This document shows positions 13,300 through 21,081 of a stretch of DNA of 64,000 nt, piece after piece. The translations under genes were made by a program, and so were the position numbers. How positions within the stretch are numbered: the stretch's first letter is position 1; each line of letters opens with the position of its first letter. The stretch is from the NCBI GenBank assembly GCA_965203985.1, contig CBDBDS010000012.1, forward strand, positions 211,907-275,906, given 5' to 3'. Below the pieces are notes generated by a model, which was not told the origin of the DNA, made no database searches, and saw nothing but the letters and a program-made list of their open reading frames with translations. Origin of the DNA: Dehalococcoidia bacterium. Its GTDB lineage: Bacteria > Chloroflexota > Dehalococcoidia > Lucifugimonadales > UBA3495.

Positions 13300-13365
13300 C
13301 ACCTACGAACCAGAAACCCAATCCCGTCCATGCCATTCATCCCGTCCATCCCTGCCAAACCGCAG
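13300..13365 (+). repeat. C-rich/G-poor dispersed intergenic repeat, copy A
   Basis: ACGAACCAGAAACCCAATCCCGTCCATGCCATTCATCCCGTCCATCCCTGCCAAACC shares the core ATCCCGTCCATCC...TGCCAA with copies at 19505-19543 and 22021-22106. Confidence 0.6.
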
Positions 13366-13393
13366 CCCCCCAACCGTTCGCCAGGGTGCCCGG

Positions 13394-13402
13394 TGTTATA
13401 AT
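13394..13402 (+). promoter_or_regulatory. Extended -10 promoter element (TGTTATAAT) upstream of the dehydrogenase gene
   Basis: TGnTATAAT lies about 50 nt upstream of ATG 13454. An AGGAG RBS follows. Confidence 0.35.
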
Positions 13403-13453
13403 TCGGCCACTTGCCGCCGGTAGCGCATCGGCGCGTTTCAGGAGCGAAAAGGT

Positions 13454-14359
13454 ATGAAAGCTGGGTTTATCGGGGTTGGCAACATGGGCAACCCTATGGC
13501 CGCCAACATGATCAAGGCTGGGCATCAGCTCACCGTCCACGACCTGCGTCGCGAGTCCGCCATCAACCTGCTCGAAATGGGCGCCGAGTGGTCCGACAGC
13601 CCCGCCGGCTGCGTCGCCGGCAACGATGCCGTGTTCACCTCGCTGCCGGTGCCGCGGGACGTTGAAGCTGTGGTGATGGGCGAGAACGGCATCATGTCCG
13701 CCGCCGGCTCCGGCAATGTTTACGTCGACCTGTCCACCAACTCCCCGACGGTCATCCGCCGGATCCACGACGAGTGCGCCGCCCGTGGCGTGACCGTTCT
13801 GGACGCTCCGGTCAGCGGAGGCGTGTACGGCGCGGCCGCCGGCACCCTGGCCGTCATGGTCGGCGGCGACGAGGATACCTACAACACCGTCAAGCCCATG
13901 CTCGACGCCATCGGCGCCCACGTCGTCTATTGCGGCGAGATCGGCAACGGCATGGTCACCAAGATCTGCAACAACCTGCTGTCCATGGGCATCGGCGTCC
14001 TGATGTCCGAGGCCCTGACCCTCGGCGTCAAGGCTGGCGTCTCGTTGGAAACCCTGGCCGACGTCATCGCCAACAGCAGCGGCGGCAACCGTCGGCTCAC
14101 CGAAAAGTTCCCGCGCTACCTCTTTGCGGATAACTTCGAGCCTGGCTTCGCCACCGCCCTGGCCGCCAAGGACGTCCGCCTCGCCACCGACCTCGGCCGC
14201 GAGTACGGCATCCCCATGGAACTCTCCAACCTCGTCGACCAGCGCCACGTCGAAGCCCTCTTCCGCGGCTGGGGCCCCGAAGACTCCGACGCCGTAGCCA
14301 AACTCCAGGAGGAAAAATCCGGCGTCCAGCTCCGCTTCGGTGGCGAGACGGACCGATAA
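13454..14359 (+). CDS. NAD(P)-dependent 3-hydroxyisobutyrate dehydrogenase-type (HIBADH/6PGDH-like) oxidoreductase
   Basis: N-terminal Rossmann motif GFIGVGNMGNPMA, and a family-typical core (VLDAPVSGG, GNGMVTKICNN). Confidence 0.85.
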   Translation: MKAGFIGVGNMGNPMAANMIKAGHQLTVHDLRRESAINLLEMGAEWSDSPAGCVAGNDAVFTSLPVPRDVEAVVMGENGIMSAAGSGNVYVDLSTNSPTVIRRIHDECAARGVTVLDAPVSGGVYGAAAGTLAVMVGGDEDTYNTVKPMLDAIGAHVVYCGEIGNGMVTKICNNLLSMGIGVLMSEALTLGVKAGVSLETLADVIANSSGGNRRLTEKFPRYLFADNFEPGFATALAAKDVRLATDLGREYGIPMELSNLVDQRHVEALFRGWGPEDSDAVAKLQEEKSGVQLRFGGETDR

Positions 14360-14426
14360 TGAGTTGCAAAGTAGGCCGGGTCAGTACATCGACCGCTGAG
14401 ATTGGAGCACCGACAGGAGGGTACTG

Positions 14427-14804
14427 GTGATTACCCACGGCGTGAAGTGCCGCAAACCTGAAGACCATCTGAAAGCTGCTGACCTGGCGCTTGCAAATGG
14501 CGATTACGATACCGGATCGCTTCTCCTGTATCAGTCCGTAGAGTGTGCGTTGCAGCGACTGGCTGAAGCGTCAGGAATGCGCGTTGAATCAAGGTCGGAG
14601 TTCCGGGATTTCGCCGACCGGCTGGACCGCCAGTATGGACGTGATGGTTGGCACGCGCGTAAATTGCGGTTGGCAACCGTTTTCCGTGACAACGCCGCAC
14701 ACCATTTCGCGCCTTCGAACGATATCGTGCTCAGTTGGCCATCCGTTAGAGAGTTTGCCCAAGCGTTGATGGAGTACCAACCTGAGAACCTTGCGGATGG
14801 ATAA
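14427..14804 (+). CDS. HEPN/PaREP1-like helical protein (paralogue 1)
   Basis: An all-helical 125-aa protein with the same layout as the downstream PaREP1-like genes. It contains an R-x4-H motif (FRDNAAHHF). GTG start with AGGAGG 6 nt upstream. Confidence 0.45.
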   Translation: MITHGVKCRKPEDHLKAADLALANGDYDTGSLLLYQSVECALQRLAEASGMRVESRSEFRDFADRLDRQYGRDGWHARKLRLATVFRDNAAHHFAPSNDIVLSWPSVREFAQALMEYQPENLADG

Positions 14805-15171
14805 GATCGACCATTTGGCGGTGGCGGATCGCCTTAATCAATTGGCTGCAAGACTGCGGGCAGATGGCGATGACATCGCCATGGCGGAAATGCTGTGGGG
14901 AACCGTGAACCGCATCACCAACGCTTTAGCCCTTCAGCACGAGCTGGCCTATGGGAATAGCTACCCGCGGGGTGGCCGCGTCATCAGCCATCTTGTCACT
15001 CATCATTGCAACGACGCGGAGCTACAGGACAATTGGCTGTCAGCCAGTGCTTTGCACGGCCACTTTTACACCAGTCACCTTGAGCCTGCGAATTTGGCTG
15101 GGCACGTGCAAGATACGCAAAACCTGATCGACGAACTCCTGAAATTGTGCGATGCTTCTATTGACGAGTGA
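14797..15171 (+). CDS. HEPN/PaREP1-like helical protein (paralogue 2)
   Basis: Helical protein ending its third helix with ...ASALHGHFYTSHL (compare LHxNFY). ATG 14797 overlaps the upstream stop (ATGGATAA). Confidence 0.45.
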   Translation: MDKIDHLAVADRLNQLAARLRADGDDIAMAEMLWGTVNRITNALALQHELAYGNSYPRGGRVISHLVTHHCNDAELQDNWLSASALHGHFYTSHLEPANLAGHVQDTQNLIDELLKLCDASIDE

Positions 15172-15371
15172 ATAATGGACTCGCCAACGCCCCCCGGTGT
15201 GTCCGGATACGACGACGTAAAAGTCAGCGTCTCCATGCACTGCCTTAGTAACACCGTTGCTCAAGCAAGCGCCAGGCCAATATAGAAGTGTGCCGCCCTC
15301 CCAACAAAAAACGTCACTAACTGCCTTCTAAACCGATGGTCACGAGTGCGTAACAGTCCAGTCTCAATGGA

Positions 15372-15764
15372 ATGTCCCACTTCGCTCCATCATTCCAGAA
15401 ACCTCATGTCCACCGAGGCCACACGTTGTTCCGTTCGGCCTACCCCGCCAAAGACCGGCCCGCGTACATCACCCGCTACGTGTACGCCGACACCACGTTG
15501 TCCACCCACGGCGGGACTGCGGGCAAGGTCAGCGTCACCAGCGAGGAGCACACCCGCCTCCAGCAGATGGCCGAGTACCTCGAACGCTGCTGCAACGACC
15601 TTGACGCCGCCGGCTACGACGTCATCTCCATCACCCCCGTCATCAGCGGCCGCACCGCCTACACCCACACCGAGACCACCGACATCTACCCCGGCCACGG
15701 CTACAGCGTCACCGACGGCCTGGTCGTTACCGGCCGCCTCAAGTCCCTGGAGCCCAACCCATGA
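15372..15764 (+). CDS. Hypothetical small protein (start uncertain)
   Basis: Strong C/G third-position bias. The stop overlaps the ATG of the next gene (CCATGA). No family recognised. The alternative-frame 204-aa ORF looks like a low-complexity artefact. Confidence 0.55.
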   Translation: MSHFAPSFQKPHVHRGHTLFRSAYPAKDRPAYITRYVYADTTLSTHGGTAGKVSVTSEEHTRLQQMAEYLERCCNDLDAAGYDVISITPVISGRTAYTHTETTDIYPGHGYSVTDGLVVTGRLKSLEPNP

Positions 15765-16189
15765 CCCAATCCTCTCCCATCGAACCCTTCGACGAGCCGG
15801 CCGCAGCCATCGCCGACTATCGTCAGCAGGCCCGCGAGTTCCTGGCAAAAAGCCGTCAGTACCTGGCCGACGACGACCTGCACCAGGCATCCGAAAAAGG
15901 CTGGGGCGCCGCCGCGTGGATGGCCAAAGCCGTCGCCGATGCACAGGGCTGGGAATATAAAAGGCACGCCCAGTTCAACGTCGTAATGTATAGCGCCCAG
16001 GACTTCGCCGGCGATGCCAGATTAGACGGCCTCCGCGCTTTGGCCAGTGAACTGCACGGCTACTTGTACACCCGCAAGCTTCTTCTGCGCTCCGACGTGA
16101 TCAGTCGCGGGCTGGACCAGATGGGCGTCCTGTTGGACATCCTCGAACCCCTCACCGAAACCGACCGACACGCTGAAGGCGACCCATGA
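15761..16189 (+). CDS. PaREP1-family (HEPN superfamily) protein, tandem copy 1
   Basis: AREFLAKSRQYLADDDLHQASEKGWGAAAWMAKAVA...ELHGYLY matches my recollection of the archaeal PaREP1 signature (QASEKxWGAAA ... LHxNFY). Confidence 0.65.
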   Translation: MTQSSPIEPFDEPAAAIADYRQQAREFLAKSRQYLADDDLHQASEKGWGAAAWMAKAVADAQGWEYKRHAQFNVVMYSAQDFAGDARLDGLRALASELHGYLYTRKLLLRSDVISRGLDQMGVLLDILEPLTETDRHAEGDP

Positions 16190-16599
16190 CCCAATCCTCT
16201 CCCATCGAACCCTTCGACGTGCCGGCCACAGCCATCGCCGACTACCGTCAGCAGGCCCGCGAGTTCCTGGCAAAAAGCCGCCAGTACCTCGCCGAGGATG
16301 ACCTGCACCAGGCATCCGAAAAAGGCTGGGGCGCCGCCGCCTGGATGGCCAAGGCGGCTGCCGAGGCACAAGGTTGGCAGTACAAGAAGCACGATCAATT
16401 CAATGTAGTGCTGAACAATGCCCGTCTTTTGACTGGAGATGGACGACTGCCCGGGCTGCGTGGCATCGCCAACGACCTGCACACAAACTTTTACAAACGC
16501 AGGCTATTGCTGAACGCCGACGCCATTGCTGTAGACTTGGACCACATCTCTACCCTCCTCGACATCCTCGAACCCCTCACCGAAACCAGCACAACCTAG
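16186..16599 (+). CDS. PaREP1-family (HEPN superfamily) protein, tandem copy 2
   Basis: It has the same signature, including LHTNFY. The first ~150 nt and the last ~40 nt are nearly identical to copy 1 at nucleotide level, and the middle is diverged. Confidence 0.65.
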   Translation: MTQSSPIEPFDVPATAIADYRQQAREFLAKSRQYLAEDDLHQASEKGWGAAAWMAKAAAEAQGWQYKKHDQFNVVLNNARLLTGDGRLPGLRGIANDLHTNFYKRRLLLNADAIAVDLDHISTLLDILEPLTETSTT

Positions 16600-16608
16600 G
16601 AGATCCCC

Positions 16609-17637
16609 ATGACCAGCAGCGCAGAACGTCACGTCGAAACCGCCGACACCATCGAGGCCATCGAGGAGTGCTTCCGCCTCGGCTGGACTGACGGCCTCCC
16701 CGTCATCCCACCAGCCGATTACAAGGTCCGCGAGATGCTCTCCACCGCCGGCCTCACCGGCGAGGAGGAACTGCTCAACCTCGATATGCGCAGCCGCGTC
16801 ATCACCTCCGAGAACGCCGCCGCCAACGCGGTCATGGCCGGCTGCGAGGCCGAGTACTTCCCCGTGCTAGTCACCGCCCTGCGCACCCTCGAGGAAGAGC
16901 GCAACTTCGTCAACATGGCCGCTTCGTCCACCAGTTCGCCCAGTATCCTGATGGTGCTCAACGGCCCCATCCGCGAGCAGCTCGGCATCAACAGTCGTGA
17001 CGGCCTCTTCGGCCCCGGCTTCCGCGCCAACGCCAGCATCGGCCGCGCCGTCCGCCTCTGCTTCATGAACGGCTTCGACGCCTGGCCCGGCCAGCTCGAC
17101 CGCGGAACCCTGGGCACTCCGGCCAAGTACACCTTCTGCGTCGCCGAAAACGAGGAAACCTCCCCCTGGGAGCCGCTCCACGTCAGCCGCGGCTTCGACG
17201 CCTCCGACAGCGTGGTCACCGTCGCCGTCGCCTACAACCCGGTCAGCGTGCCGAACAGCTACGCCCACACCGGCCAGGCCATCCTCCTCTCCATCTGCGA
17301 CGCCCTCCGCTCCGCCGCCCTGGCCCATCGCTACCCCGCCCAGTGGGTCATCGTCATCGGACCCGAACACGCCCTGACCCTCCAGGGCGACGGCTGGACC
17401 CGCCGCGACATCCAGGACTTCCTCATTGAGAACAGCGGCCGCTCCCGTGCCGAACTCGTCCGCCTCGGTTCCAAGCAGGGCCCGGAACAACCCGGCGACG
17501 AAGAACTCATCATGCGCTGCGCCATCGACCCGAACGACATCCTCATCATGCACGGCGGCGGCACCGGCGGCCGCTACAGCGCCATCATCGACACCACCGG
17601 CTACCGCATCCGCACGCGCAAGATCGGCGGGGATTAG
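16609..17637 (+). CDS. Conserved hypothetical protein (342 aa), first gene of the selenoprotein-containing string
   Basis: AGGAG RBS and good coding bias. Motifs GWTDGLPVIPP and AANAVMAGCEAEYFPV. I cannot assign a family. Confidence 0.7.
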   Translation: MTSSAERHVETADTIEAIEECFRLGWTDGLPVIPPADYKVREMLSTAGLTGEEELLNLDMRSRVITSENAAANAVMAGCEAEYFPVLVTALRTLEEERNFVNMAASSTSSPSILMVLNGPIREQLGINSRDGLFGPGFRANASIGRAVRLCFMNGFDAWPGQLDRGTLGTPAKYTFCVAENEETSPWEPLHVSRGFDASDSVVTVAVAYNPVSVPNSYAHTGQAILLSICDALRSAALAHRYPAQWVIVIGPEHALTLQGDGWTRRDIQDFLIENSGRSRAELVRLGSKQGPEQPGDEELIMRCAIDPNDILIMHGGGTGGRYSAIIDTTGYRIRTRKIGGD

Positions 17638-17638
17638 C

Positions 17639-18460
17639 ATGACGACATCAGCCTTTCCAACAAGCCCGTTTCCAGGAATGAATCCTTACCTGGAAGACCC
17701 TGATCTTTGGCCGGGCATACACAAGACCTTTATCGCCGGTTTGCAGCGGCTCCTCAGTCCCCAATTGCGCCCCGATTACATGGTCCGGATTGAGGAACGG
17801 GTGTATGTATCCGACGAACCCAACGTCAGCGGGCAACGGCCCTTCCGCATACCCGACGTTATGATTGTGGACGAGGGTGGCGCCGCCGCCCGCGCCACCG
17901 CAATAGAGACGGAACCCCAACAAAACGAGGACGCCATCAACGTGGCGCTCCCTTCAGTTGAGCTGGAAAAAGACCGTTACCTGAAAATCATCAAGGTCAG
18001 CAATCGTGAGGTCGTTGCTGTAATCGAGCTGCTGTCGCCCTCCAATAAGACTGGCGATGGCCGCCAGGAATATCTGTCCAAGCGTGCCGAAGTGCAGTAC
18101 AGCCTTTCTCATTTGGTGGAAATCGACCTGCTGCGCTCCGGATCGCCCATGCCAGTCGTTGGAGACGTCCCCGGTGGCGACTACCGAATCCTGATTAGCA
18201 ATGCCCGGCTTGCGCCCGATGCGTCGCTGTACGTCTTTAGCATGCGCCAGCCGATACCCATCTTCGTCATGCCCCTGGCAGAAGGCTCCGAAGGCATAGC
18301 AATAGACCTGAAACCCGTCATCGACGAGGTGTACGTCCTCGGTTCCTACGACCGGGACATCGACTACTACCAGGACCCGGAACCGCCCCTCTCCGACCCC
18401 GACCGCGCCTGGATCGACCAACTCCTTCGCAATCAGGGGTTACGCAAACCGGCCCTTTGA
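17639..18460 (+). CDS. DUF4058 family protein (restriction-endonuclease-like fold)
   Basis: The N-terminus SPFPGMNPYLEDPDLWPGIHKTFI is the typical DUF4058 start. The ATG lies 1 nt after the upstream stop. Confidence 0.7.
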   Translation: MTTSAFPTSPFPGMNPYLEDPDLWPGIHKTFIAGLQRLLSPQLRPDYMVRIEERVYVSDEPNVSGQRPFRIPDVMIVDEGGAAARATAIETEPQQNEDAINVALPSVELEKDRYLKIIKVSNREVVAVIELLSPSNKTGDGRQEYLSKRAEVQYSLSHLVEIDLLRSGSPMPVVGDVPGGDYRILISNARLAPDASLYVFSMRQPIPIFVMPLAEGSEGIAIDLKPVIDEVYVLGSYDRDIDYYQDPEPPLSDPDRAWIDQLLRNQGLRKPAL

Positions 18461-18520: not shown

Positions 18521-19081
18521 ATGACCACCGCCGAATCGAGCCGCCTCCGGCTCGTCAACCCCAAGGGCACCGAACTGCCCCAGACTGAGTTTCGCATGAA
18601 CGACCGCTCCGGCGGCTTGGCCGGCAAGCGCCTGGGCCTCATGGAGAACTCCAAGGCCAATGCCGACAAGCTCCTGATCGAGCTCGGCAATATCCTCAAC
18701 GAGCGCCACGGCTTCTCCGAGATCAAGTTCTACGACAAGGGCCACGCCAGCCTGCCCGCCAAGCAGGAAATGATCGACGAGATCTTGAGTGAGGTCGATT
18801 ACCTCATCACCGGGGTCGGAGATTGAGGGTCCTGCAGCTCGTGCAGTGTGCACGACGGAATCGACATGGAAAAGCGCGGCGTCCCCACCGCTGCCATCAT
18901 CACTCACGTCTTCCTCAACACGGCGCAGGCCATGACCCGCATGATGGGCGTGCCCGACTACCGCTACGTTGTCGCCCAGCATCCCCTGTCCAGCCTCACC
19001 GATGACGAGGTCAAGCAGCGTGCCGCCGACTTGGCCGACGAGGTGGAGTCCATCCTGACCGGCCAGCCTGTCGCCGCCTAG
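18521..19081 (+). CDS. UGSC-family / GrdB-C-terminal-like selenoprotein (predicted Sec at TGA 18824-18826)
   Basis: ORFs 18521-18826 and 18848-19081 share a frame and are separated only by one TGA. Read-through gives ...DYLITGVGD-U-GSCSSCSVHDGIDMEKRGVPTAAII... (UxxCxxC). Only the first ORF has an RBS (GGAGG). Confidence 0.75.
18839..18855 (+). promoter_or_regulatory. SECIS-like hairpin downstream of TGA 18824
   Basis: TCGTGCA-GTG-TGCACGA forms a 7-bp stem with a G-containing apical loop about 20 nt after the UGA. An alternative hairpin is CTGCA-GCTCG-TGCAG at 18832-18846. Confidence 0.45.
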
Positions 19082-19104
19082 CAACCCGCGCGTCGGAGTC
19101 GCCC

Positions 19105-19491
19105 GTGGCGTCTCCCGGCACGTCGCAACCGTCTCGCCTGCCCATCGACCCGGCCATCCGGCCCGGTCTGGCAGGCGAAACTCATTTGACCGTCGCCGCC
19201 GAACACCTCGCCCCGCATACGCCCAAGTTCAGCACCCCGGCCATGGTCATGCTCATGGAGCAGGCGTCGTACCAGGCGGTCCTGTCCCTGCTCCACCCTG
19301 CCCAGACCGTTGTCGGCTACGAGGTCAACGTCAAGCACCTCGCCCCGGCTGACGAGGGTTCAATCGTCACCGCCCGTTCCATCCTTACCGACGTGTCCGG
19401 CAACAAGCTCCGCTTCGAAGTCGAAGCCCACCACGGCGACGTCCTCCTCGGCACTGCTGAACATAAAATGGCCATAGTGCCAACCCAGTGA
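19105..19491 (+). CDS. Hotdog-fold thioesterase (FlK-like/4HBT-like)
   Basis: ...THLTVAAEHLAP...FSTPAMVMLMEQASYQAV...VGYEVNVKHLAPADEG fits the hotdog thioesterase pattern. GTG start with GGAG 6 nt upstream. Confidence 0.7.
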   Translation: MASPGTSQPSRLPIDPAIRPGLAGETHLTVAAEHLAPHTPKFSTPAMVMLMEQASYQAVLSLLHPAQTVVGYEVNVKHLAPADEGSIVTARSILTDVSGNKLRFEVEAHHGDVLLGTAEHKMAIVPTQ

Positions 19492-19504
19492 CCGTCTTAA
19501 TACC

Positions 19505-19543
19505 CAATCATCCCGTCCATCCTGTGCATCCATGCCAAACCGG
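19505..19543 (+). repeat. C-rich/G-poor dispersed intergenic repeat, copy B
   Basis: CAATCATCCCGTCCATCCTGTGCATCCATGCCAAACCGG lies 14 nt after the thioesterase stop. Confidence 0.6.
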
Positions 19544-19577
19544 CCGCATCTCGAGCGGTTAGTATCAGGAGGCCATC

Positions 19578-20144
19578 ATGTCCTGGATCCGAGAAACCGA
19601 CGTCGCCGTCCCCTCGGTGATCAGTTGCATGTCCATCAACCCCGACCTCATGGCGGCGGTCCAGAACCTTAACGCCAAGGCGACCTTCGGCTCGTCCGCC
19701 CTAACCCGCACCCAGGAGGAAGCAATCGCCACCGTGGTCTCCCTGGTCAACCGCTGCCGGTATTGAGCCGTCGCCCACGGAGGGTTCCTCCGTCAACACT
19801 CCGGCGACCCCGAGTACTCCAGCCACATCATCCACGACTACACCCTGGCAGACCTGGACCCGCAGACTCGCGCCATCCTCGATTACGCCGTCAAGCTCAC
19901 CCTGACCCCGGCAGCGATGACCGAAGCCGACATTAGTACCCTCCGCACTGTTGGCCTCACCGACGAGCAAATCCTGTCCACTGTCGCCATCACCTGCGTC
20001 TTCAACTTCATGAACCGCTTAGCCGATGGCCTCGGCGTCGAAATCCCCGAAGGCCGCGAGGCCATCATGGGCCAGTGGCTCTCCGACGCTGCCAAGCAAG
20101 CCCAGGACTGGCTCCTGTCCCCGGACGCCGTTGCCGTCTCCTGA
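19578..20144 (+). CDS. AhpD-like / carboxymuconolactone decarboxylase-family selenoprotein (predicted Sec at TGA 19764-19766)
   Basis: ORFs 19578-19766 and 19917-20144 share a frame, and the 150 nt between them are stop-free with coding bias. Read-through gives ...VSLVNRC-R-Y-U-AVAHGGFL..., which is the family motif N-x-C-x-Y-C-x-x-x-H with the second Cys replaced by the TGA codon. AGGAGG RBS at 19578 only. Confidence 0.8.
19770..19808 (+). promoter_or_regulatory. SECIS-like two-tier hairpin downstream of TGA 19764
   Basis: The outer stem is GTCGCC/GGCGAC (19770-75 / 19803-08). The inner stem is ACGGAGG-GTT-CCTCCGT (19777-19793). The apical loop G lies about 18 nt after the UGA. Confidence 0.55.
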
Positions 20145-20168
20145 GCCGCGGGTACTACGTCGACTGTT

Positions 20169-20196
20169 ATTGCCAGGCGCAAAGCGCCGTGGCAAT
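20169..20196. repeat. REP-like/terminator hairpin of the GGCAATCTCGCC family
   Basis: ATTGCCA-GGCGC-AAA-GCGCC-G-TGGCAAT followed by CTCGCC, 25 nt after the AhpD-like stop. Related copies lie at about 21242-21270 and 21310-21352. Confidence 0.5.
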
Positions 20197-20253
20197 CTCG
20201 CCAGCCGGGCCACCGCCGACAATTCCAGCCAACCCAACCACCCGGAGGTCCCC

Positions 20254-21081
20254 ATGACACTCCTACCATCCGGTCGTCCCCGTCTCCAGGACAAGGTCGC
20301 CATTGTCACCGGCGCCGGCTCCAGCGGCCCCGGCGTCGGCACGGGCAAAGCCGCTTCCATCCTGTTCGCTCGTGAGGGCGCTCGCGTCCTGCTGGTTGAT
20401 CGCAACCTTCAGGCCGCGGAGGAAACCCTCGCCATCATCCACGAGGAGGGCGGCGAGGCCTCGGTAATCGCCGCCGACGTCACCTCTGCTGCCGACTGCG
20501 AGGCCATTGTTGACGCTGCCGTGGAACGCTACGGCGCGTTGCACATCCTTTTCAACAATGTCGGCATCACCGGTCCCGGCACGCCTACCGATGTCGACGA
20601 ATCCGTCTGGGACAACGTCCTCGACGTGAACCTCAAGAGCATGATGCTCACCACCAAGTACGCCGCCCCCAGGATGATCGACGCCGGTGGCGGGAGCATC
20701 ATCAACATGTCCTCCATCGCCGGCGTCCGCGCCGGCAGCGGCCTGGCCAGCATCCCTTATTCCGCCTCCAAGTCCGGCGTCATCGGCATGTCCGAGACCA
20801 TGGCCGTCCACCTCGGCCGCGACAACATCCGGGTCAACGTCATCGCCCCCGGCCACATCTACACTCCCATGGTCGCCGGCGCCATGGCCGATGAAACCCG
20901 CGAAAACCGGCGCAAGGCCGGCCCTCTCGGGGTCGAGGGCAATGCCTGGGACATCGCCTATGCCGCGCTCTTCCTCGCCAGTGATGAGGCTCGTTGGGTC
21001 TCCGGCGTCGTGCTCCCCGTCGATGCCGGCCTCCTCGCCGCTACTCCCCTCGCCATGTACAACCGCATCCGCGACGAGTGA
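20254..21081 (+). CDS. SDR family oxidoreductase
   Basis: The cofactor motif VAIVTGAGSSGPGVG and the catalytic YSASKSG (YxxxK) are present. ATG 20254 has GGAGG 5 nt upstream. The ORF-track start at 20026 overlaps the upstream gene. Confidence 0.85.
   Translation: MTLLPSGRPRLQDKVAIVTGAGSSGPGVGTGKAASILFAREGARVLLVDRNLQAAEETLAIIHEEGGEASVIAADVTSAADCEAIVDAAVERYGALHILFNNVGITGPGTPTDVDESVWDNVLDVNLKSMMLTTKYAAPRMIDAGGGSIINMSSIAGVRAGSGLASIPYSASKSGVIGMSETMAVHLGRDNIRVNVIAPGHIYTPMVAGAMADETRENRRKAGPLGVEGNAWDIAYAALFLASDEARWVSGVVLPVDAGLLAATPLAMYNRIRDE

Follow-up and report, generated by a model that had tools for sequence, protein, structure and literature searches.

A split-annotated AhpD-like gene of a Dehalococcoidia genome is predicted to encode a C-x-x-U selenoprotein

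We analyzed a stretch of 64,000 nucleotides from a Dehalococcoidia bacterium (NCBI GenBank assembly GCA_965203985.1, contig CBDBDS010000012.1, positions 211,907 to 275,906 of the forward strand), referred to here as the window, and focused on an AhpD-like gene at positions 19578-20144 whose reading frame contains an in-frame TGA. The gene, its parts, and its immediate neighbors are listed in Table 1. An earlier note on this DNA, made from its letters, had predicted that the TGA specifies selenocysteine (Sec, U) in a C-x-x-U protein of the carboxymuconolactone decarboxylase (CMD) family. Our analysis supports this prediction, as the protein matches the family, the UGA falls on a redox cysteine of its homologs, and both the UGA and the hairpin that follows it are conserved.

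Table 1. Features of the AhpD-like gene and its surroundings (positions are those of the window; CDS, coding sequence; SECIS, selenocysteine insertion sequence; SDR, short-chain dehydrogenase/reductase)
Feature	Positions	Strand	Description and basis
UGSC family selenoprotein gene	18521-19081	+	In-frame TGA at 18824-18826, ...ITGVGD-U-GSCSSC...
Hotdog-fold thioesterase-like gene	19105-19491	+	Pfam FlK/4HBT on orthologous called genes
Shine-Dalgarno-like AGGAGG	19567-19572	+	5 nt before the ATG at 19578; seen in the sequence, putative function
AhpD-like / peroxidase-related selenoprotein CDS (predicted)	19578-20144	+	567 nt, 188 aa, UGA read through
TGC, Cys60	19755-19757	+	First residue of the C-x-x-U redox motif; translation, homolog alignment
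In-frame UGA, predicted Sec codon (U63)	19764-19766	+	Alignment to the second Cys of CxxC, conservation
Outer stem	19770-19808	+	GUCGCC (19770-19775) / GGCGAC (19803-19808); minimum free energy fold of the window; not conserved in the family
Predicted SECIS core	19777-19793	+	7-bp stem ACGGAGG (19777-19783) / CCUCCGU (19787-19793), loop GUU; folding, conservation
Genuine terminator, likewise TGA	20142-20144	+	Orthologs stop at the equivalent place
SDR gene	20254-21081	+	NF005559, 223.8 bits against 215

The TGA at 19764-19766 is the sole interruption of the frame in the translation of 19578-20144. The open reading frames (ORFs) on its two sides, 19578-19766 and 19917-20144, share a common frame, the 150 nt in between (19767-19916) are free of stops, and reading through the TGA gives ...TVVSLVNRC-R-Y-U-AVAHGGFLRQH..., exactly as the earlier note had quoted. 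The coding bias that had been said to continue past the TGA does so, with a GC content at third codon positions (GC3) of 0.87 before it and 0.83 after it. A run of 150 nt without a stop is not improbable by chance in GC-rich DNA; the case goes beyond chance because homology runs across the TGA (residues 8-154 in the match to the NCBIfam model TIGR01926 and residues 10-159 in those to homologs in the PDB), and because of the comparative data given below. The next in-frame start after the TGA lies 150 nt downstream in the window, at 19917, and the window sequence shows no evident ribosome-binding site past the TGA. Public protein sets carry the split products, namely a 62-aa N-terminal peptide and a C-terminal "hypothetical protein" of 75-124 aa. 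Close matches in the protein databases are mostly 119-124 aa long and start just past the UGA as M/V-AHGGFLR..., which indicates that gene callers split many relatives at the same point.

Profile searches, which were run with Cys in place of the stop, confirmed the proposed membership in the CMD/AhpD family. The translation matched Pfam PF02627 CMD with 41.9 bits against a gathering score of 23 (residues 22-97) and NCBIfam TIGR01926 "peroxidase-related enzyme" (COG2128 YciW) with 133.3 bits against a curated cut-off of 81.8, the latter over residues 8-154 of 188 and thus spanning the UGA. The PDB entries 6k40, 2oyo, 2pfx, 3c1l, and 2prr align over about 145 residues (E = 2e-27 to 3e-22). These solved homologs read N-R-C-x-Y-C-A-V-S-H-G, and the UGA falls on the second Cys of their CxxC motif. 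Alignment to Cys-containing homologs had been named beforehand as a point on which the prediction could fail, and the UGA stands opposite the redox Cys in 6k40, 2oyo, and 2pfx; one Cys homolog identified by us (L128) has TGT at the UGA site. The first residue of the motif, Cys60, is invariant across 81 distinct genes. The part downstream of the TGA, which had been taken for the C-terminal half of the family, keeps the conserved residues and is aligned in the PDB homologs. The relay residues of AhpD and PA0269 have been described as Glu...Cys-x-His/Tyr-Cys-x3-His (PMC3141380), and the proton-relay set is complete in our translation (E48, C60, Y62, U63, and H67).

The earlier note had also held that it is the "resolving" Cys that is replaced by the TGA. 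The position of a redox Cys stands, but the label is doubtful. In the AhpD of Mycobacterium tuberculosis, Cys133, the second Cys of CxxC, is exposed and attacks AhpC, to which it becomes cross-linked, while Cys130 is partly buried; the opposite hierarchy of the two Cys has been noted for Burkholderia (PMC6626918). Given the exposure of Cys133 in the M. tuberculosis protein, we infer that U63 more probably stands in for the attacking than for the "resolving" residue. A narrower assignment of the protein, as a bona fide AhpD (that is, a reductant of AhpC) or as a gamma-carboxymuconolactone decarboxylase, was considered and set aside for want of an equivalog match and of linkage to ahpC or pca genes. 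NCBIfam gave TIGR01926, TIGR04030, NF041238, TIGR00778 (core domain), and TIGR04029 only, with no AhpD or PcaC equivalog among them, and the neighboring genes encode a UGSC protein, a hotdog thioesterase, and an SDR, with no ahpC or pca gene linked to the locus.

The UGA itself is strictly conserved. A scan with one genome per species recovered 80 loci with 60-97% amino acid identity, all from metagenome-assembled genomes (MAGs) of Dehalococcoidia/SAR202/Chloroflexota. TGA stands at the Sec site in 80 of these 80 species representatives (77 with C-x-Y-U and 3 with C-R-F-U), and TAA or TAG never do, while the terminal stops of the same genes are TGA in 45, TAG in 23, and TAA in 12. As the internal stop is always UGA and UGA also serves as an ordinary terminator, it represents neither a decaying nonsense mutation nor a global reassignment of the codon. 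We also examined 12 syntenic metagenome or MAG loci that had been retrieved by the exact 62-aa N-terminal peptide, and in all 12 the TGA and the frame are preserved, as is the length of 567 nt. Each has 24-77 differences from the window, mostly synonymous on either side of the TGA and mainly at third codon positions (in L007, 60, 11, and 6 differences at codon positions 3, 1, and 2, respectively). The N-terminal half of these loci was chosen by identity, and therefore only the counts from the C-terminal half are unbiased; in the 150 nt past the TGA, synonymous codon changes exceed non-synonymous ones (2-17 against 1-3, with 17 against 2 in L009). This purifying selection downstream of the TGA, together with the presence of the TGA in every representative, contradicts termination at 19766 and bears out the translation beyond it that had been proposed.

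The immediate surroundings of the UGA show a regularity of their own. Among the 80 species representatives (L017-L096), U is in every case the last base of the codon before the UGA (TAT in 77 and TTT in 3), while Tyr88 of these genes is encoded by TAC in 74 of 80, and the base after the UGA is G in 61 and A in 19. The preceding U and the following G or A may reflect a local context requirement for recoding.

Directly downstream of the UGA lies a hairpin, of which the inner stem starts 10 nt and the loop 17 nt past the UGA. The minimum free energy of the 71-nt fold is -21.8 kcal/mol (z = -1.97), a stability matched by 7 of 200 shuffles; taken alone, this is modest evidence. Conservation of the pairing was counted in 82 distinct sequences. 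In the inner helix, 99.3% of the cells are paired, and every internal change still allows wobble pairing (A-to-G opposite U, n = 12; C-to-U opposite G, n = 4); the only break in this helix is that of the terminal A-U pair, which occurs in 4 sequences. One locus (L092) has a compensatory double change from GC to CG, which costs two amino acid replacements (G69A and F70L). The outer stem is paired in 68.3% of the cells and is disrupted by a GUC-to-GUG change in L001, and the RNAalifold consensus omits it and retains the inner helix alone; it is at best a feature of the window's own clade. The hairpin had been described as a two-tier, SECIS-like structure; both stems do exist, and the inner one of 7 bp is conserved, but the outer one, at 68%, is not.

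The inner helix is constrained at the RNA level. Codon entropy across the 81 distinct genes is 0-0.6 bits at codons 67-72, compared with 1.2-2.1 bits at conserved Gly, Leu, and Arg columns elsewhere. These six codons read CAC GGA/GGG GGG TTC CTC CGT, in which GGA/GGG and CGT are locally unusual choices, GGC and CGC/CGG being preferred elsewhere. The mean for the hairpin is 6.9 pairs out of 7 and -9.4 kcal/mol in 78 distinct TGA genes, compared with 4.9 out of 7 and -4.0 kcal/mol in 16 distinct non-TGA paralogs that have Gly or Arg at the site (Mann-Whitney p = 3e-12, uncorrected for phylogeny). Distant TGA members with 40-47% identity (L123, L124/125, and L126) keep a hairpin at the same position. 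In L123 and L124 the pairing is kept via GC-to-AU and GC-to-CG changes that alter amino acids, and L126 keeps 6 of 7 pairs with a different loop of 5 nt. Bacterial SECIS elements have been described as a stem-loop just past the UGA with a small apical loop that contains G (PMC1088965), and the window hairpin, judged by its spacing and by its small loop starting with G, matches this description.

We therefore consider it about 90% probable that 19578-20144 encodes one AhpD-like protein in which the UGA is recoded as Sec (C60-R-Y-U63) by way of the hairpin at 19777-19793. The UGA at 19764-19766 would then be decoded instead of being read as a stop, and the hairpin would act as a bacterial SECIS that recruits SelB and Sec-tRNA(Sec) to the ribosome. 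The product would most likely be a thiol/selenol-disulfide oxidoreductase that reduces a peroxiredoxin-type partner or a peroxide, with U63 as the putative exposed attacking nucleophile and C60 as its partner, the two presumably forming a selenenylsulfide.

Several results weigh against this reading. The closest full-length homologs have Gly, Arg, Trp, or Leu at the Sec site and not Cys, which is found there in more distant relatives only. Covariation scores on the hairpin were no better than those of shuffles, because the helix hardly varies, and the RNA argument rests on synonymous suppression, on a handful of compensatory changes, and on how the Gly clade described below differs, all of which share phylogenetic non-independence. 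Rfam gave nothing at the gathering score in the window, and a permissive scan of 19500-20200 (E <= 10) returned no SECIS model and only chance matches to snoRNAs and sRNAs (E = 0.9-10), although such a miss says nothing about function, given how short and heterogeneous bacterial SECIS elements are (PMC9312934). As for the decoding machinery, ARAGORN found no tRNA, and so no tRNA-Sec, in the window or in 60 related loci, and tblastn with E. coli SelA, SelB, and SelD sequences gave no match in 888 kb of related DNA, which is a tiny share of the genomes. Sec machinery is documented for related MAGs only, by COG annotation in a published paper, and we found no report in the literature of experimental selenium incorporation for any AhpD-like C-x-x-U family member.

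The paper in question is that of Slaby et al. (2017), who reported SelA (COG1921) and SelB (COG3276) in sponge-symbiont bins; their Table S4 gives three SelA and one SelB for bin87, and two SelA and one SelB for bin22 (PMC5649159). Of these, bin87 (MPNC00000000) corresponds to our locus L024 (93% identity) and bin22 (MPMM00000000) to L077 (63%), both are labelled "Chloroflexi; SAR202 clade", and both keep the TGA. In BSepDB, Dehalococcoidia MAGs are recorded with 46-49 selenoproteins (PMC13326102). A genome lacking Sec machinery had been named beforehand as another point that would refute the prediction; these records, along with the in-frame TGAs of the adjacent UGSC gene and of the OsmC-like candidates described below, are good indirect evidence for Sec decoding in the lineage.

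The hairpin could also be a by-product of the conserved H-G-G-F-L-R peptide, in which case the true recoding signal, if any, would lie elsewhere. The codons that form the stem specify six highly conserved amino acids, and the covariation and Rfam results given above would fit this explanation. However, the Gly clade uses varied codons for the same peptide, which disrupt the stem, the drop in synonymous entropy is confined to the hairpin codons, and L092, L123, and L124 change amino acids yet keep the pairing. We consider it improbable on these grounds that the peptide accounts for the stem.

Relatives lacking the UGA bear on another alternative, namely that the UGA is read through as a residue other than Sec, be it Trp or Cys through near-cognate decoding or Gly or Trp through a reassigned code. 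A sister clade with 45-51% identity (L013-L016, L097-L113, L115, L127; P0017-P0039) has C-R-Y-G, encoded at the site by GGG, GGA, or GGC (Gly), with occasional AGG (Arg), or Glu. It encodes H-G/A-G-F-L-R with varied codons, its downstream hairpin is decayed, and it may be a variant with a single cysteine and a different chemistry. Four of its loci (L013-L016) also have a separate CMD-domain gene of 101 aa (2634-2939, + strand) 60 nt upstream of the AhpD-like gene, forming a tandem of CMD-family genes. The only close full-length proteins in the databases are three singletons on contigs of less than 1.2 kb, L129 (TGG), L130 (CGA), and L131 (TTA), which surface as full-length because gene callers split all true TGA genes. 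Their Sec codon is one base off TGA, giving Trp, Arg, and Leu, and the hairpin persists at the site, kept through a GC-to-AU change in L129 and lacking the loop G in L131; these three are sequencing errors or cases of very recent Sec loss. We also considered whether the Gly or Trp of the full-length homologs could be TGA translated under code 25 or 4, and rejected this, as the real codons are GGA/GGG/GGC, TGG, CGA, and TTA.

The Gly of the sister clade and the Trp, Arg, or Leu codons of the single contigs speak for decoding as another residue, as does the fact that Sec machinery was not directly seen in the source genome. On the other hand, TGA is a normal terminator in 45 of the same 80 genes, with the window's own stop at 20142-20144 being an example, the site is the redox Cys in solved homologs, and a hairpin with a G-containing loop is conserved only alongside TGA. 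In addition, related MAGs are reported to have SelA and SelB, and the family is catalogued as a selenoprotein. We consequently regard decoding as a residue other than Sec as quite improbable.

Gene callers effectively treat the gene as a pseudogene, as the 62-aa and 75-124-aa products in public sets show, with translation ending at a nonsense mutation at 19766 and the downstream part untranslated and decaying. This is highly improbable in view of a TGA that is present in all 80 representatives and never exchanged for TAA or TAG, a preserved frame and 567-nt length, post-TGA substitutions that are predominantly synonymous and at third positions, and a C-terminal half that keeps the conserved residues of its family. 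Two independent small genes, one for a 62-aa peptide and one for a separately initiated C-terminal protein, would agree with the GTG or ATG that some relatives have directly past the TGA and that allows ORF calls of 119-124 aa, yet this can be dismissed as exceedingly improbable, since the 150 nt that precede the window's next in-frame start are under protein-level selection, the TGA lies within both the C-x-x-U...H motif and a single CMD/TIGR01926 domain, and a ribosome-binding site is not evident past the TGA.

About 500 nt upstream of the AhpD-like gene lies the UGSC gene, which matched NF041046 with 154.9 bits against 125 and Pfam PF24696 with 194.6 bits. Its TGA cuts it into ORFs of 101 and 77 aa and is kept in 49 of 49 syntenic loci. 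A small hairpin follows the UGSC TGA as well (CUGCA-GCUCG-UGCAG or GUGCA-GUG-UGCAC). The hotdog gene has a weak match to TIGR00369 (21 bits, below the cut-off) and is syntenic in 41 loci. The whole cluster of UGSC, hotdog thioesterase, AhpD-like, and SDR genes (18521-21081) is kept in those 40 species representatives whose identity is 78% or more (L017-L056) and in L121, and it is absent around the more distant TGA-bearing AhpD-like loci, where the neighborhoods differ. Sponge metagenomes are the source of many of the closest records. When the whole window was scanned by GC3 for TGA-split genes, a noisy procedure in GC-rich DNA, only two TGAs, those at 18824 and 19764, stood out as combining a GC3 of more than 0.8 on either side with sensible peptides.

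The pairing of the UGSC and AhpD-like genes does not appear among the neighboring selenoprotein gene pairs named in the available parts of PMC2398784 and PMC13188914. It is conceivable, though we think it rather unlikely, that the UGSC (U-G-S-C) and AhpD-like (C-R-Y-U) proteins of this SAR202/Dehalococcoidia cluster form one dedicated selenol-based redox relay, which, if true, would give the uncharacterized UGSC family its first functional partner. Adjacency to the UGSC gene is in itself a modest functional lead for two uncharacterized selenoprotein families.

Other observations concern the wider surroundings of these loci. An OsmC-like gene with an in-frame TGA (...AILF-U-E-M-T..., UxxT) is present in L059 (1798-2385, - strand) and L077 (1833-2420, - strand), about 0.6-0.9 kb from the AhpD-like gene and on the opposite strand; this candidate matched Pfam OsmC with 47.2 bits against 27.5 and belongs to a selenoprotein family that is already known. 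Upstream of the cluster (about 13300-18460 in the window; L003-L012), the DNA is variable, as the numbers of PaREP1, DUF4058, and Uma2-family genes differ between syntenic loci, with four PaREP1 copies in L004. In the window, the peptide PNPLPSNPST follows the TGAs at both 15762 and 16187, a sign of repeated DNA.

In 2005, a study of the Sargasso Sea described AhpD-like C-x-x-U selenoproteins, with 27 sequences assigned to COG2128 (Zhang & Gladyshev, PMC1088965). In the Global Ocean Sampling data of 2008, "AhpD-like 1" with 299 sequences and "UGSC-containing" with 255 were among the most abundant families (Zhang & Gladyshev, PMC2398784). The AhpD-like family (COG2128, CxxU) also appears in a 2022 review (PMC9312934) and in BSepDB (PMC13326102), and a 2026 review lists an "AhpD-like protein, TIGR01926, CxxU" (PMC13188914). 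The two reviews also list a "UGSC-containing protein, NF041046" and "OsmC-like, UxxT" (PMC9312934, PMC13188914). The window gene has every testable defining feature of the AhpD-like C-x-x-U selenoproteins. It is an ordinary member, formerly annotated in two pieces, of an established selenoprotein family in a lineage rich in selenoproteins, and it leaves the knowledge of Sec decoding and of the AhpD family unchanged. Its value lies mainly in annotation, as gene callers routinely cut such genes at the UGA, the split annotation loses the active site, and the selenoproteome of SAR202/Dehalococcoidia is under-counted. The gene also offers a compact natural example of what would be a minimal bacterial SECIS, with 7 bp, a GUU loop, and frozen synonymous sites, which vanishes upon Sec loss. 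Two leads remain, the conserved pairing of two uncharacterized selenoproteins and the Sec-to-Gly sister clade.

Among known systems, the predicted SECIS can be compared with that of the E. coli fdhF type. The two share a hairpin inside the coding sequence directly 3' of the UGA and a small apical loop that contains G, and in both, conservation is limited to the upper stem-loop and to how far it lies from the UGA. The window hairpin differs in being very short (7 bp), in its GUU loop of 3 nt, and in lacking a bulged U, and its binding by SelB is a prediction. For the consensus part of these features, the description in PMC1088965 is the same.

At the protein level, the AhpD of M. tuberculosis (E118, C130, H132, C133, and H137) shares the CMD fold and the relay pattern, with U63 corresponding to Cys133. 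In contrast to it, the window protein has no AhpD equivalog match, has, like PA0269, Tyr instead of His at the central position of the motif, and has no ahpC gene next to it. NF041238 AhpD_rel_CFYUT, a (seleno)protein model that goes back to "hypothetical protein 1" of the Sargasso Sea, likewise covers C-x-Y-U selenoproteins of the AhpD superfamily. We rejected the window protein as a member of NF041238, because its score (56.4 bits against a cut-off of 175, covering only profile positions 178-342 of 357) is too low and that family has a different, longer architecture. The solved homologs 6k40 (AhpD according to its depositors), 2oyo, 2pfx, 3c1l, and 2prr share the N-R-C-x-Y-[C/U]-A-V-x-H-G motif and the C-terminal half. 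They differ in having Cys at the UGA site and about 30 more residues at the N-terminus (residue 11 of the query corresponds to residue 43 of the chain), and none is from Chloroflexota, judging by their names.

The closest counterpart is the AhpD-like selenoprotein family itself. The window protein matches the same hidden Markov model family above its cut-off, has a C-x-x-U motif with the predicted Sec in second place, and has Cys homologs, and its gene has a stem-loop right past the UGA with a small G-containing loop and stems from the same kind of source, marine and uncultured bacteria. Nothing essential differs between the two; what sets the window group apart is that it consists of sponge-associated and marine SAR202/Dehalococcoidia, that it lies in a clade-specific UGSC cluster, and that its nearest non-Sec relatives carry Gly in place of Cys.

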